DNA of 63,951 nt, filler included, from Reclinomonas americana ATCC 50394 (lineage: Eukaryota), in NCBI GenBank assembly GCA_048213135.1. It is 9 parts of 3 records of this genome, joined end to end, with 100 filler letters (N's around TTAATTAATTAA, not from the genome) between each part and the next. Parts side by side here need not be neighbours in the genome. Positions count along the whole stretch, not along the records: positions 1 to 4,811 come from PS015615.1; positions 4,912 to 18,737 come from PS015615.1; positions 18,838 to 28,406 come from PS015616.1; positions 28,507 to 44,434 come from PS015616.1; positions 44,535 to 49,470 come from PS015616.1; positions 49,571 to 55,814 come from PS015616.1; 3 more parts are not named here. The stretch is one strand, 5' to 3'. A program made the position numbers and the translations under genes. The stretch's first letter is position 1. Every line of letters begins with the position of its first letter. The notes beneath the pieces were generated by a model. That model was not told the DNA's origin. It ran no database searches and saw only the letters and a list, made by a program, of their open reading frames with translations. Positions 1 through 55,570 of this stretch are shown here, in pieces.

Positions 1-363
1 GGGGAGGAGACGAGGAAAAGGGGGAGGAGACGAGGAAAAGGGGAAGGAGAAGAGGAAAAGGGGAAGGAGAAGAGGAAAGGGGAAGGAGAAGAGGAGGAGG
101 GAAAGGGGGAGGAGGAGAAGAGGAGCAAAGGGGAAGGAGAAGAGGACAAGGAGGAGAAGAGGGAAAGTGAGAGAACTTGAGGAAGAGCATGAAAAAAGTT
201 TCAAATGTGAACAGAAGGAGAGAGCGAGAGAGGAGGGCAGCAGAAGAGTATGGAGGAAGAGGAGAGACTCAAAAGACAGGAAAACACAGCGCAGACAGAG
301 ACGGCAAGCAGTGCGAGAAGAAGCACACACACTTGAAAAAACAGACAGAAAATGGAACGCAAC

Positions 364-585
364 TTCTCCTTGAATCCATCCCACATGGTCTGCAGCTGCA
401 CATCGTCAAACGCCTGCAACACCGATGGCGCCGACGCCTGCTCGCTCAGCACTTGTGCGCGCACAGTCATGACTGACAAGAGATAACAACAAGTCAGACA
501 AGCAATCAAAGAGCAGATTGTAAAGCGATTCCTGCTCACCGACTGCCACCAGCACAAGCAACGCCAGAATCAATGAGGAACGCAT
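364..585 (-). CDS. 5' exons of a probable second prepro-papain-family (C1A) protease; gene runs out of the window
   Basis: Exons 585-540 and 472-364 splice in frame to MRSSLILALLVLVAVVMTVRAQVLSEQASAPSVLQAFDDVQLQTMWDGFKEK. This is a signal peptide followed by a W..FK.K start typical of the I29 propeptide, and it parallels the neighbour's DDVQVIRAWDQYK. The catalytic domain is not visible. Confidence 0.6.
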
Positions 586-745
586 GTTGGATTGTCAATG
601 CTCTCGCACGAAACACGAAATATAGGTTACCCTGTATGTGAAAAGCGAGAGTAACCCGCTCGTGTTCGAAGTAACCCCCACTTCTCGCAGCATCTTTCAG
701 ACACCAATTCGCGGTGTTCGGAAACCGTAAGCGCAAAAAGTCGCA
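586..745. promoter_or_regulatory. Putative 160-bp bidirectional promoter
   Basis: Lies between divergent ATGs at 585 (-) and 746 (+). Inferred from position only. Confidence 0.4.
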
Positions 746-1849
746 ATGAGAATTGCTTGTCTCCTCGCTCTCCTCCTCGTTCTTGTCGGCGTTGCTTCTG
801 CGCAGTTGCTCACGCAACATCTCACTCGCGATGATGTGCAAGTGATTCGCGCGTGGGATCAATACAAGTCGGATTTCCACCGTCAGTACGCCAGCGCAGA
901 GGAGGATGAGATGCGTCGTCAGGTGTTCGCTGGTGAGTCGAGAGGGAGACGGGAGAAGGAGGATGTGTTGTGACTGATTTCTGTCAAAAGAAAACATGAA
1001 CTACATCCGCGAGTGGAATGCGGAGAACTCGGCGTCAGCTGGCTACGAGCTCGGCATGAACGAGTACGGGTGAGAGCTACTCAACGCGCGCTCATCCTCC
1101 CCTGTGAGCAGTTATCTCACTCGCGCGCCAGTGATCTGTCATGGGAGGAGTTCCAGGCGCGCTACTTGACGGCGAGCATGCCGGCGGAGCTTGCAGACGG
1201 ATCGCTGGAGACCGTGGCCGAGTCGGCAGAGGTGACTGCACCGGCCACGTATGATGCGCGCTCGGCGCACCTCGTCTCCAGTGTGAAGAACCAGGGACAG
1301 TGCGGCTCGTGCTGGGCCTTTTCGGCGGCGGCCGCGGCCGAGGGCGCCTACGCCAAGAAGAGCGGGAAGCTGTTGAATCTGTCGCCGCAGCAGCTGGTCG
1401 ACTGCGACAAGAGCAGCAGTGGCTGCAATGGTGGATGGCCGTCCAGTGCGCTGCGCTGGGTGGTGTCGCATGGCGGCATTGCGAGTTGGACGGCGTACTC
1501 GTACACGGGACGGCAGGGGCAGTGCAAGCAGGTGGCCTCGTCGGCCAAGCTCTCCAAGGTGGTGGGCGTCGGTGCGTCGACCTCCGCGCTGCAGAACGCC
1601 ATCTACACGTACGGGCCGGCCAGCGTCGCCGTGCATGTGAGCCAGTCGTTCCAGTTCTACAAGGGTGGCGTGTACTCGGGGCCGTGCCAGGGCGCGGCGA
1701 ATCATGCCGTGTTGGCCGTCGGCTGGACCGCCAATGCGTGGATCATCAAGAACTCGTGGGGCTCGTCGTGGGGCGAGAGCGGCTACATTCGCCTGGCCAC
1801 TGGCAACACCTGTGCCGTGCTCAACAACGCGGTGGTGGCGGTGGCGTAG
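746..1849 (+). CDS. Cathepsin L-like papain-family cysteine protease (C1A), 3 exons
   Basis: Exons 746-932, 991-1069, 1132-1849. Signal peptide; ERFNIN-like EEDEMRRQVFAENMNYIREWN; GMNEYGD; catalytic motifs QGQCGSCWAFS, ANHAV and IIKNSWG are all intact. Confidence 0.95.
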
Positions 1850-1926
1850 TAGGAGTGAATGAAGGGATGAGCTGCATTGTATTCTTCCCTTGATCTGGGG
1901 GCGGGAGAGGCGGCGGTGGGACTCTC

Positions 1927-52700: not shown

Positions 52701-52710
52701 TGGAGTCGGA
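49703..52710 (+). CDS. Multi-exon protein of unknown function (P/D-rich disordered region, short coiled coil, helical C-terminal region)
   Basis: About 12 consecutive GT-AG exons stay in frame (e.g. TLIMRKLSKVLSMMNEQQHQL; CMCSSYWFALPLF; NEFFVRLRGIMLKCEQL). Both ends are unresolved. It may be the continuation of the EF-hand gene. Confidence 0.7.
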
Positions 52711-53144
52711 GTATGGTGGTCGTCCGTTGCGTGGTGTATGTTGGGGAGGGAGATTGGGAAAGTGGGAGACTGAATGGTGAGAGCGGGCAGGCATGTGCGC
52801 AAGACGGCGGTGGGCATGGAGCTTGGCGATATCGATGATGGAATTGGTCAGCGAGGTGGGTGAGAAGGGGGGTGATGGGGAAGGGGGGAGAAGGGAAGGG
52901 AGTGGTGGCTTATGTGTGGTTGCAGGCAATGGACTCGGTAGTCTGGATTTGGACGGAGACTTTGAGATGTGAGGGTTGTGTTTTTCGGGGATCCACGTGT
53001 GCGATAGCAAGGAGTACTGTGTGATGCATGAGAATGAAAGGAGATGGAGTTGATGCAATGGAGGGGCACGGAAAGGGGAAAGAGAAGAGTGATTCAAAGG
53101 CAAGGGGTTTGGCGACCATGGAGAGGGAGAAAATATAAGCCAAG

Positions 53145-53720
53145 CAATTCGATGAACAAAGATGAACGAAGGAGCAACAAAGAGAACAGAGTGGCGTGTG
53201 ACATGAAGCCAAGGAATCGATGAACAAGGATGAACGAAGAACAACAAAGAGAACAGAGTGGCGGGCGATAAGAAGCCAAGAGTTCAACGAACAAGGATGA
53301 AAACAATTGACGAAAGAACAACAAAGAGAACAGAGAGGCGTGGGACAGGAAGCCAAGGAATTCGATAAACAAAGATGAACGAAGGAGCAACAAAGAGAAC
53401 AGAGTGGCGGGCGATAAGAAGCCAAGAGTTCAACGAACGAGGATGAACGAAGAACAAAAAGAAAACAGAGTGGCGCGTGCCAAGCAATTCAACGAACAAG
53501 GATGAACGAAGAACAACAAAGAGAACAGAGTGGCGAGTGCCATGGAAATCGATGAACATGGATGAGGGCGCTTGATGAGCAACAAAGAGAACAGAGAGGC
53601 GTGGGACAGGGAGCCAAGGAAATCGATGAACAAAGATGAAGACGCCTGGCGAGAGCAACAACAAGGTGACCAGAGTGGCGCGTGACATGAAGTAAAGGAA
53701 TTCGATGAACAAGGATGCGC
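53145..53720. repeat. ~60-65-bp tandem repeat, about 9 copies
   Basis: GATGAACAAAGATGAACGAAG.A.CAACAAAGAGAACAGAGTGGCG...AAGCCAAGGAAT recurs throughout. Confidence 0.9.
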
Positions 53721-53768
53721 ATGCAGACGCCCGACGAAAGAACAACAGTATGAACTCCTCTTACAAAG

Positions 53769-55570
53769 TTACCAGTTCACTGCTGTCATACATGTCCGCG
53801 ATGTGCATACAAGTCGCGCGATTGATCTGCGAAGACGGGGGCATGGTGAGTGATACGAATAAGGCGGGCAGGCAGATCGCGAGCTGAGCGCAACTGAGGT
53901 AGTTGAGAATGTTCTCCCTGTGACGAAACACAAGAAATGAGTCAGCAAGTTTCGATTCACTCTCCCATCTTCTACGAAGCTCGTGCCAGAAGGGAGAAGG
54001 AGGGGAAAGGAGTGAAGGGGGAGGAAGAAGGAGGGGAAGGGAGTGAAGGGGGAGGGAGAAGGAGAGGATGGGATCACTACTCGGCAGTTTCTCTCCCAAC
54101 GTCACGATTCCTCGGCCTGCTCCCTCTTTCTTGTACACAGGCTGTGCAACATGATCGTGTTCTCTATCGTGCACTCGCTCATTGAGGAGTAGGAGGAGGA
54201 AGACAGGAAGGAGTGCAACGAGAAGAAACAAGAGAATTCATCAGAAAGACAGAATGAGAAGGAGAAGACAATGAGGAGAAGAAACAAGAGACAGAATGAA
54301 CTGGTGCGCTCATCCATGCGTTCTCACACGACCACTCACCAACTGTGTCAAGAACGGCGCCGACCGGCACAGGGGGAACAATGTGAGCGCATGCAAAAGA
54401 ATGAGGATAATGACACACTTGCAGACCTTGACCTGCATATAGGAGTCAGCCACGAGGTCGTGTGAAGAGAAGAAGGCACCGAGACGCACCTAAACAAGTC
54501 GTACTCCTCCTTGGAGAACTCGGCGTTGCTGTATCTGGCACGCTCGTACGCCTCCACGTATGCCTGGCAGGAGAAGCGAGAGAGATCCTGTATGCGGGAT
54601 GGAGAGGGAGCGCACAGAGAAAGGAGGTGAGGGATTATGCAAACAGAAAGTGCATGATCACGGTACCCGCACTTCTCCCAGTCCTCACACGGCGCACCAA
54701 TCTTCAACTCCCACCTCACTTCTCGGAGAAAGTAGGCAAGGACTTGATACAAAACTACTTCTTCAAGATTGACCAACATCCCGCTGACACCTCACGCGAT
54801 AACTCGATCCTCGCTTCTCCGAGATAGGAGGCAAGGACTTGATACAAGACTACTTCTTCAAGATTGACCAACATCCCGCTGACACCTCACGCAATAACTT
54901 CAACCTCACTTCATGGAGAGAGCACGAAAGGATTGACACAAATTATGTCTAACACACCTCACGCGATAACTTCCTCTTCGCTTCTCAGAGAGCTGGAAAG
55001 GACTGATACAAAAACTACTTCGTCACTCACTGCTTCTCTCAACCTTCCCCCTGCTCCCTCCAGCGACTCACCGGAAAATCACCCTGTAGTATATCCATGT
55101 ACTCCCGGACCGTCTGGTTCTGCCGCAGCTGATACCGCACCGGATTGATCTCGCTGGCCAGATCGACAATGTAGGTGTACGAAATGGAGATGTTCAACCT
55201 GCGCACACAAGAGAGTGAATAAGCGTGTGCGTGTGACCCTTTGAATCTCCTCTGCGCAAGCGCAACTTGAAATGACTGTTGTAATCGGCGGTGCCAGGCT
55301 TGCCCCAGCCGAAAAAGTTATCGCTGACGCTGTCGTGAATGTAGGCCGGTTCGGCGCGCAAATTGGCGCACTCGACACTCTCCTCAATCACAGTGTGGTA
55401 GATGGTCTGTGGCGCAATGAGGAGACGGAGGAGAGTGGGAGCGGGAGCGAGGAATACAAGACCTTGCCCATTTCCTTGCGGCGGATTGGCAGGTATCCGC
55501 GGGGGATGTGCGAGAGGCGTTTGCGGTGGACGACGGAGCGGTAGAGAGGGGTGGCGATGAAGAAGAAGAG
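53769..55570 (-). CDS. Dlt1-like membrane protein with DUF4129-like C-terminus; 5' end in gap, last exons tentative
   Basis: Spliced: LFFFIATPLYRSVVHRKRLSHIPRGYLPIRRKEMGK|TIYHTV..FGWGKPG..HFK|LNISISY..QTVREYMDIL..|..AYVEAYERARYSNAEFSKEEYDLFR. The IP..Y.PI, GW..PG and YERAR motifs recall fungal Dlt1. Confidence 0.6.
54715..55020. repeat. Intronic tandem repeat (~95 bp)
   Basis: AGGCAAGGACTTGATACAA.ACTACTTCTTCAAGATTGACCAACATCCCGCTGACACCTCACGC occurs twice, plus degenerate copies. Confidence 0.8.

Follow-up and report, generated by a model that had tools for sequence, protein, structure and literature searches.

The choice of a 5' splice site is debated, with pairing to the U1 small nuclear RNA (snRNA) weighed against later U5/U6 contacts and proteins such as LUC7, the site classes under discussion being two that have a register in common. 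Departures from the standard register are experimentally established in human, where U1 can pair in a shifted register or with a bulge at +2/+3: according to the accessible part of Tan et al. 2016 (PMC4856993), through which we traced the work to Roca & Krainer 2009 and Roca et al. 2012, 1.5% of 201,541 sites are covered by validated noncanonical registers, and 54 sites are on a curated list of +2/+3 bulges. Here, we examine the 5' splice sites (donors) in a 63,951-base stretch of DNA, ‘the window’, from Reclinomonas americana ATCC 50394 (GenBank assembly GCA_048213135.1), in whose gene models the introns fall into two donor classes according to the last exon base, one with an ordinary consensus and one with that consensus displaced one base downstream.

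The second class resembles the human noncanonical registers in that a GU is followed by the consensus one base late, the helix being displaced or a U bulged, with cleavage at the GU, and the human test site ACA/GUCAAGUAU (the slash marks the cleavage point; PMC4856993, accessible part) has A at position -1, as is often the case here. It differs in scale and form, since here the pattern covers 30 of 87 modelled introns, has a fixed word of its own, GTTGCGT, and is linked to the -1 base; it is known from sequence, and the pairing is predicted. The two major 5' splice-site classes, AG//GUNNN on the one hand and NN//GURAG on the other, are likewise anticorrelated across the cleavage site, in that a G at the end of the exon supports one of them, whereas the second depends on a strong motif within the intron (PMC9803359 and the LUC7 study PMC11842720, as far as their available text goes), and in the window, too, -1G anticorrelates with a strong intronic consensus. 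However, the known classes share a register with G at +5. In the window, the class with the strong intronic motif instead carries C at +5 followed by G at +6, and +5G is retained by 44 of the 55 donors after G.

Atypical donor consensus sequences matched by changes in the pairing region of U1 are described in amoebozoans, the region being ACAAAC in Entamoeba and ACGUAC in Mastigamoeba, while Physarum has standard candidates alongside modified ones (Roy & Bowser 2022, bioRxiv 10.1101/2022.06.08.495308). Those genomes each have one consensus in the normal register (GUUUGU, GUGCGC, GUAUGU), and in the available text of that preprint none is reported to divide according to the base that ends the exon or to lie one nucleotide out of place. 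Another abundant second class with an extended 5' motif is formed by the minor introns of Physarum polycephalum (Larue, Elias & Roy, bioRxiv 10.1101/2020.10.12.336362); in the accessible part of that work these have the motif [AG]TATC[CT]TT and a TTTGA branch motif 10–12 nt from the 3' end, neither of which is present in the second class here. We found no report of a GTTGCG/GUUGCG donor in the main texts of the literature on splicing and on amoebozoan splice sites, in which few subscription journals were represented, nor did the literature searched contain GTF2H1 and INPP4A as human shifted-register examples, as which an earlier note on this DNA had named them. What is new here is a conserved G at +6 behind an obligatory extra U, as a fixed word in about a third of the introns.

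Results

All gene models assume GT-AG introns, with junctions predicted from the sequence, and all counts come from this single ~64-kb window. We called donors canonical (GTNNG, with G at +5; class 1), shifted (GTTNHG, that is, GTT with G at +6 and no G at +5; class 2) or other, and scored the -1 base as G or H (A, C or T). We curated 87 introns and labelled each by its evidence, with the hypothesis known at the time. In this set, exons ending in G are followed by 44 canonical, 3 shifted and 8 other donors, and exons ending in H by 5 canonical, 27 shifted and no other donors (Fisher P = 2.7e-14). The set omits 363 and 18145, for which the downstream exon lies outside the window or in a gap, 43943 and 44006 (strand conflict), 42991, and several tiny-exon or linking introns. 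Among the 59 curated introns supported by homology or by the posterior described below, P = 7e-9. The earlier note had proposed two donor classes tied to the last exon base, with about 27 of about 32 non-G donors reading GTTnnG and the class amounting to about a third of the introns, and the curated counts agree with it on each point. The split by the -1 base also stands, but T at +3 is not exclusive to non-G exons, given that G/GTTTGT, G/GTTACG and G/GTTTTG exist. What this window's models show is that there are two donor classes, that these go with the -1 base and that the consensus is slid by one base between them.

Introns were predicted with a semi-Markov gene finder run on each strand separately, which took introns as GT-AG and combined codon log-odds with a model of intron composition, with about 2.3 kb of Pfam-supported coding sequence as the training seed. 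With neither a donor nor an acceptor matrix in the finder, GTTGCG is the top donor hexamer (7/61, then 11/62; 6/66, 10/67 and 7/58 without strand reconciliation). A single donor matrix was rejected, as it was polluted by CT-rich sites, gave worse models and missed 17 of 32 listed donors. The two-component mixture substituted for it, started from random assignments, converged on caA/GT-TGCGTG (weight 0.34) and gaG/GT-GtGT (0.66) and recovered 23 of the 32 listed donors, or 28 with penalties favouring longer gene chains.

The -1 column of this mixture could, by circularity, strengthen the link to the -1 base. In a donor-free re-scoring, all in-frame, stop-free GT/AG pairs of 100 predicted introns were ranked by coding potential, intron composition, an acceptor matrix and a length prior; removal of the 9 introns with a flanking exon shorter than 20 nt left 91. 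Given as canonical/shifted/other, the finder's own choices for these 91 are 40/2/9 after G and 11/26/3 after H (P = 1.4e-10), and the best donor-free choices are 32/2/12 and 10/24/11 (P = 1.1e-7). With a donor-free posterior of at least 0.9 (n = 61) the counts are 28/2/6 and 6/16/3 (P = 1.0e-6), so that the association persists when no donor model is used, and with homology or motif rows only (n = 16) they are 3/2/1 and 0/10/0 (P = 0.008).

The excess of GTTGCG is positional and does not lie in its raw number. On both strands together it occurs 47 times against 34.7 +/- 5.8 in shuffled sequence, and 3 of 100 shuffles reach 47, whereas it makes up 17 of the 87 curated donors against 0.66% of 7077 GT sites (binomial P = 3e-20). 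Including the uncurated sites at 363 and 18145, 19 of the 47 occurrences serve as donors, compared with 19 of 259 for GTG[AC]GT. All 18 GTTGCG coordinates listed earlier are present on the given strands, as are the listed GTTTCG, GTTGAG and GTTCAG sites; of the listed exceptions, the minus-strand donor given at 45117 exists, but its coordinate was wrong by one, the G being at 45116. It is very improbable that the pattern arose from bias, manual or model-driven, in picking among in-frame GTs, or from the small sample by chance. It is true that many introns offer several in-frame GT candidates (1–80), that the final mixture includes a -1 column, that the curated labels were set with the hypothesis known and that the raw count is 47 against 34.7 expected. 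However, the signal precedes any donor matrix, survives a donor-free local choice and holds in a subset that includes donors fixed by homologues alone, and G, which stands at -1 in 55 of all 87 donors, precedes none of the 17 GTTGCG donors and 6 of the 30 other occurrences.

One gene model is that of an ABCG half-transporter. Its 16 donors join an uninterrupted protein with Walker A, signature and Walker B intact, and the model with eight class-2 donors after H gives an open protein of 539 amino acids that scores 539.8 bits against a hidden Markov model (HMM) of homologues. This HMM was built from 120 homologue segments only, excluding the window protein, and was used to score 125 other junction pairs that keep the frame. 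At 14 of 15 introns no alternative outscores the model, and 6 of the 8 class-2 donors after H are clearly favoured. In the 3' part, read from the sequence, 3136 joins 2209 and 2116 joins 2038. Two further exons were excluded, 2358-2321 because it put the chain out of frame and a mini-exon at 8796-8761 because it brought in two stops (568.8 versus 574.0 bits).

After G, the 44 class-1 donors have G at +3 in 33; A, T, C and G at +4 in 19, 14, 9 and 2; G at +5 by definition; T at +6 in 26; and G at +7 in 20. After H, the 27 class-2 donors have T at +3 and G at +6 by definition, G or T at +4 (19 and 6), C or A at +5 (23 and 4), T at +7 in 20 and G at +8 in 13, so that their wording is GT, T and then GCGT, TCGT, GAGT, CAGT or ACGT. 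The +5G of //GURAG is absent from this intron-strong class, in which +5 is C in 23/27 and A in 4/27 and the G lies at +6. The claim that class 2 is class 1 slid by one base holds at four of five columns: G at +4 against +3 (70% versus 75%), T at +7 against +6 (74% versus 59%), G at +8 against +7 (48% versus 45%) and, by definition, G at +6 against +5. It fails where class-2 +5 meets class-1 +4. Four of the eight other donors after G have +6G and +7T without +3T (GTGCCGT twice, GTCGAGT and GTCTTGT). Located at 31319, 50418 and 20671 (+) and 55462 (-), they resemble a displaced register with a different extra base.

In every other respect that we compared, the classes are alike. Intron lengths peak at 55–81 nt with a long tail in both (Mann–Whitney P = 0.84), a CTNAY branch-like motif is present in 42 of 49 class-1 and 27 of 30 class-2 introns, 8–32 nt before the 3' end, a CAG acceptor is common to both, and there is no difference in phase (P = 0.21). 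The final 40 nt contain no 4- or 5-mer that separates the classes (best P = 0.011 among 908 tests). An introner origin was rejected, as class-2 introns share no internal sequence except low-complexity CT 9-mers, found in no more than 4 of 30. The classes are thus told apart by the donor alone, which argues for one spliceosome and against both an introner family and a Physarum-like minor system.

To that last alternative, in which a transformed minor (U12-type) system with diverged U11/U12/U6atac would remove class 2, we give very little credence. It is true that the 5' splice sites of minor introns are extended and nearly invariant, that minor introns with altered signals number more than 20,000 in Physarum (bioRxiv 10.1101/2020.10.12.336362), that class 2 is information-rich and covers about a third of the introns, and that the nearest named relatives of a kinase in the window are amoebozoan. 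But GTTGCGT is unlike [AG]TATCC[T]T, no class-specific branch motif (TTCCTTRAC, or TTTGA at -10 to -12) accompanies it, CTNAY being found in both classes, and the length distribution and acceptor are equal, with no phase bias; AT-AC introns were not searched for. As a separate observation, intron lengths are bimodal overall, with 65 of 87 curated introns at 55–81 nt, few between, and a tail of 196–1934 nt made up of CT- or GA-rich low-complexity repeats.

The reading that we rank first, ahead of a U1 variant, and to which we would give a little less than an even chance, is that the major spliceosome reads class 2 in a shifted or bulged register. Exons ending in G would be followed by an ordinary G/GTNNG(T), and exons ending in H by H/GTT-N-[C/A]-G-T, mostly GTTGCGT, with an extra U after the GU moving the intronic consensus one base downstream. 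Given the shared lengths, CTNAY motif and CAG acceptor, a single major (U2-type) spliceosome most likely removes introns of both forms. We infer all snRNA pairing in this scheme: the helix that the 5' splice site forms first with U1 and then with U6 would lie one nucleotide out of register, either shifted or with U+2/U+3 bulged; G+1 would sit in the usual place of G-1 opposite C9 of U1, G+6 would replace G+5 opposite C4, and A-1 could pair with U10, while cleavage would stay at the GU.

As expected of such a register, a GU at the cleavage point is followed by the consensus one nucleotide late, save for the +5 versus +4 column. For GUU, shift and bulged U differ just in whether G+1 faces C9 or C8. 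Of the 27 class-2 donors, 15 have A at -1, for which the shifted register predicts pairing with U10; the expected share is 28% (P = 0.002), and the excess supports the shift. In RNAduplex (ViennaRNA) with a standard U1 5' end, caA/GUUGCGUG pairs best in the +1-shifted register, and the noncanonical register is the more stable one for the same site, although weakly so (GCAAGUUGCGUGU shifted, -1.5 kcal/mol with an 11-nt U1 end). A requirement that G face C9 would also account for GTTGCG never following G, for which a U1 variant gives no such reason.

Several results weigh against a register change or against the placement of its donors. The modelled standard U1 binds H/GUGCGU at -4.0 and H/GUUGCGU at -1.5 kcal/mol, and every modelled U1 with C8 favours H/GUGCGU by 2.5 kcal/mol; hence, the 27:5 preference is not accounted for by pairing energy. 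The C that almost always stands at +5 (23/27) would face a mismatch in standard U1, and this same column is the one that does not match on sliding, class-1 +4 being A 19, T 14, C 9 and G 2. C at -3 (11/27) and A at -2 (11/27) fit an unshifted bulged pairing at least as well as a shift. The donor-free posterior favours another GT at 6341 (0.006), 3642 (0.15) and 37326 (0.28), so that the first two rest on homology and the third on a presumed glycosidase motif. Finally, sliding both intron ends by one base alters the ABCG HMM score by just -4.3 to +0.4 bits; homology is thus insensitive to such slides, and the exact cleavage point rests on the GT-AG rule.

The weak pairing energy and the +5C mismatch make a second U1 variant a serious and close rival, albeit one that we consider unlikely. 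The window's genome would then either encode two U1 snRNAs or have a U1 whose 5' end has co-evolved, with a standard-like U1 reading class 1 and a variant complementary to (A)/GUUGCGU reading class 2; the variant would have A for C at position 8 and G for U at position 5, roughly 5'-AUACG(U/C)AAC. Only a modelled U1 with A8 favours the class-2 consensus over H/GUGCGU (-11.7 versus -7.7 kcal/mol), the C at +5 (23/27) wants a G partner where class 1 favours A or T at the matching column, and A at -1 (15/27) would pair with U10. Changed U1 ends have amoebozoan precedents, including the standard and modified Physarum candidates (available text of bioRxiv 10.1101/2022.06.08.495308), and amoebozoans are the nearest named relatives of the window's kinase. 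Against it, the model tolerates G at -1 (caG/GUUGCGUG -11.1 versus caA -11.7), yet none of 17 GTTGCG donors follows G. Canonical donors after H also favour C (GTGCGT in 3 of 5), so that one U1 with G5 plus relaxed G-class sites could yield the same logos, and U1 pairing energy is called a poor predictor of 5' splice-site use in the accessible part of PMC11732430.

An improbable alternative to both the register change and the U1 variant is a single lineage-specific consensus with compensation between exon and intron, in which non-G sites need the full GTTGCG and the selective force is U5, U6 or proteins (Luc7, U1C, Prp8) instead of the U1 register. Class 2 is indeed the more constrained class, and its motif occurs after G in 3 of 55 cases. 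However, G-ending donors are not degenerate GTTGCG, as 44 of 55 keep +5G and 3 are GTTNHG; the conserved G lies at different distances from the GU in the two classes, and a single unshifted consensus is therefore insufficient.

The individual donors and the genes that contain them are listed in Table 1. A chain of 15 exons at 34827-39202 (+) forms one open frame to its stop codon by way of seven class-2 donors, and two of its junctions, HPA/LLAWNVGNE and TE-F-G, resemble what we take to be glycosidase motifs. The donor at 20520 preserves what is presumably the second CxxC of a zinc ribbon.

Table 1 Class-2 donors, ordinary donors after non-G exons, and genes in the window. Posteriors are donor-free.
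Feature	Position	Strand	Evidence and remarks
ABCG A/GTTGCG	8889..8894	-	Posterior 0.91; HMM tie with G/GTGCAA at 8900
ABCG A/GTTGCG	7447..7452	-	Posterior 0.97; HMM tie with pair 7445/7385
ABCG A/GTTGCG	6934..6939	-	Sole in-frame, stop-free GT-AG solution (n_alt 1); posterior 1.0
ABCG A/GTTCAG	6734..6739	-	HMM +11.1 bits over next alternative; restores ...TTPSILFADE...
ABCG C/GTTGCG	6336..6341	-	HMM +5.8 bits; posterior 0.006, 6311 favoured
ABCG A/GTTGCG	5126..5131	-	HMM +2.7 bits; posterior 0.65
ABCG T/GTTGCG	3808..3813	-	HMM +7.8 bits; posterior 0.99
ABCG T/GTTGCG	3637..3642	-	HMM +13.7 bits; posterior 0.15
ABCG G/GTTACG, class-2 motif after G	3432..3437	-	HMM +13.4 bits; posterior 0.999
ABCG G/GTTTTG, weak class-2 pattern after G	3264..3269	-	HMM +13.9 bits over next different donor
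Possible A/GTTGCG, second cathepsin-like gene	358..363	-	Sequence reading; downstream exon beyond window; uncounted
Kinase C/GTTGCG	17685..17690	+	Posterior 1.0 of 2 candidate donors; gap-free P0283 alignment over 17685/17748
Kinase A/GTTGCG	18145..18150	+	P0283 alignment to ...APEVVERD (18141), then first GT; next exon in gap; uncounted
C/GTTTCG, C-terminal kinase part	19442..19447	+	Posterior 0.999
TFIIB/BRF-like A/GTTCAG	20520..20525	+	Posterior 0.87; Pfam match in gene
A/GTTGCG	23321..23326	+	Posterior 0.993; gap within intron
A/GTTGCG	26844..26849	-	Posterior 0.999
T/GTTGCG	29204..29209	+	Posterior 0.66
A/GTTGCG	30598..30603	+	Posterior 0.60; in-frame rival GTTCCG 6 nt downstream
A/GTTTCG	35775..35780	+	Posterior 1.0; open 15-exon chain
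C/GTTGCG	36362..36367	+	Posterior 0.62; open 15-exon chain
T/GTTGCG	37178..37183	+	Posterior 0.985; open 15-exon chain
A/GTTTCG	37326..37331	+	Joins ...KYHPA/LLAWNVGNE; posterior 0.28
A/GTTTCG	38067..38072	+	Manual in-frame chain only; not predicted by finder
T/GTTTCG	38209..38214	+	Posterior 0.91; junction codon gives ...LTE-F-GVP
T/GTTGAG	38316..38321	+	Posterior 0.98; open 15-exon chain
G/GTTCAG, class-2 motif after G, small gene of uncertain reality	40500..40505	+	Posterior 1.0
C/GTTTCG, not listed earlier, low confidence	44600..44605	-	Finder; 44598 under other penalties; next exon meets gap
A/GTTGAG	51743..51748	+	Posterior 0.94
A/GTTGCG	52104..52109	+	Posterior 0.75; in-frame rival 52113
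C/GTTGCG, not listed earlier	52726..52731	+	Posterior 0.91
A/GTTGCG	55261..55266	-	Posterior 1.0
Exception A/GTGCGT	30971..30976	+	Posterior 0.48 versus 0.52 for 30965
Exception C/GTGTGT	36183..36188	+	Posterior 0.998
Exception C/GTGAGT	45111..45116	-	Posterior 0.96
Exception A/GTGCGT, Arm-repeat gene	56221..56226	+	Posterior 0.986
Exception C/GTGCGT, Arm-repeat gene	56614..56619	+	Posterior 1.0
Cathepsin L gene	974-1846	+	Pfam
ABCG half-transporter	about 9.0 to 1.9 kb	-	Pfam
STE20-like kinase	15.4-19.9 kb	+	Pfam
TFIIB/BRF-like gene	20.4-25.9 kb	+	Pfam
Arm-repeat gene	56.1-58.0 kb	+	Pfam
WD40 genes	58.5-62.6 kb	+	Pfam

With a G+C content of ~53% and 21 runs of N, the window is eukaryotic nuclear DNA, and genes were assigned by Pfam matches on open frames. 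In large protein collections, no protein exceeds about 61% identity to the ABCG exon or about 51% to the cathepsin. A kinase exon has one relative at 71% identity (P0283, 504 amino acids), and its nearest named relatives are the amoebozoans Dermamoeba (63%), Vermistella (63%) and Vannella (60%). P0283 is matched by exon 15372-15511 at the N terminus of the kinase, by exons 17650-18144 of the kinase domain and by exons 19341-19870 (all +); as these three groups match the same relative, 15372-19870 is a single kinase gene, whose middle exons, including the counterpart of the DIWSLG region of P0283, are lost in gaps.

Two cathepsin-L-like genes stand head to head at 364-585 (-) and 806-1849 (+); the minus-strand gene, which begins with a signal peptide at 585 and contains a G/GTGAGC intron at 539-473, leaves the window past the possible donor at 363. 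The Arm-repeat gene (56089-58044, +) has exons mostly of 129–135 nt, each approximately one repeat of ~43 residues (FG.AGG...), and holds two of the five ordinary donors after non-G exons (56221 and 56614). Among the introns left out of the curated set, 43943-44018 (+) and 44006-43949 (-) form a stretch that is intron-like on both strands, each with a donor, a CTNAC-type branch motif and a CAG acceptor, and open low-complexity frames surround it on both strands at 43.6–44.4 kb. The A/GTGCGT predicted at 42991 (+) gives a 50-nt intron (posterior 0.989), and a perfect in-frame G/GTGAGT lies 21 nt upstream (42970), giving a 71-nt intron.

An AT-rich island at 12001-16000 (32% G+C, compared with 46–59% elsewhere) is interrupted by three large gaps; a small gene is predicted within it (13197-13580), both of whose introns are of the ordinary G/GT kind. 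Hairpins formed by purine-rich GGGAGAAGG-type tracts followed by complementary CT-rich tracts occur at 19929-20154, 47730-47869, 28123-28317 and 57596-57678. Some of them open long introns (for example, 47730-48621) and could draw the intron ends together, and they have sub-threshold Rfam matches to microRNA (miRNA), small nucleolar RNA (snoRNA) and cis-regulatory models. Rfam gives no matches in the window at gathering thresholds; at E<=1 it gives no snRNA, and there are only sub-threshold, hairpin-like miRNA, snoRNA, cis-regulatory and long noncoding RNA matches on GA/CT repeats. A metagenome scan with a 470-amino-acid protein of unknown function from the window matched 145 patterns, 0 of them confirmed. 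The eight 100-base joints at 4812-4911, 18738-18837, 28407-28506, 44435-44534, 49471-49570, 55815-55914, 58921-59020 and 62816-62915 each consist of 44 N, TTAATTAATTAA and 44 N; the TTAATTAATTAA linker has stops in all frames and caused a false end of one predicted minus-strand gene at 44483.

Discussion

The last exon base in this window goes with the choice between two donor words, and it is possible, although we would not expect it, that a one-nucleotide change of register has been turned into a second donor code chosen by that base and that a dedicated U1 variant (A8, G5) may have co-evolved with GUUGCGU. Gene finders that use a single donor matrix misplace many exon ends in such a genome. 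If true, the finding would mean two parallel modes of 5' splice-site recognition within the major spliceosome. It would then provide a natural experiment on which contacts fix the cleavage point and which merely recruit the machinery, and it could reveal whether snRNA variants can share out the work.

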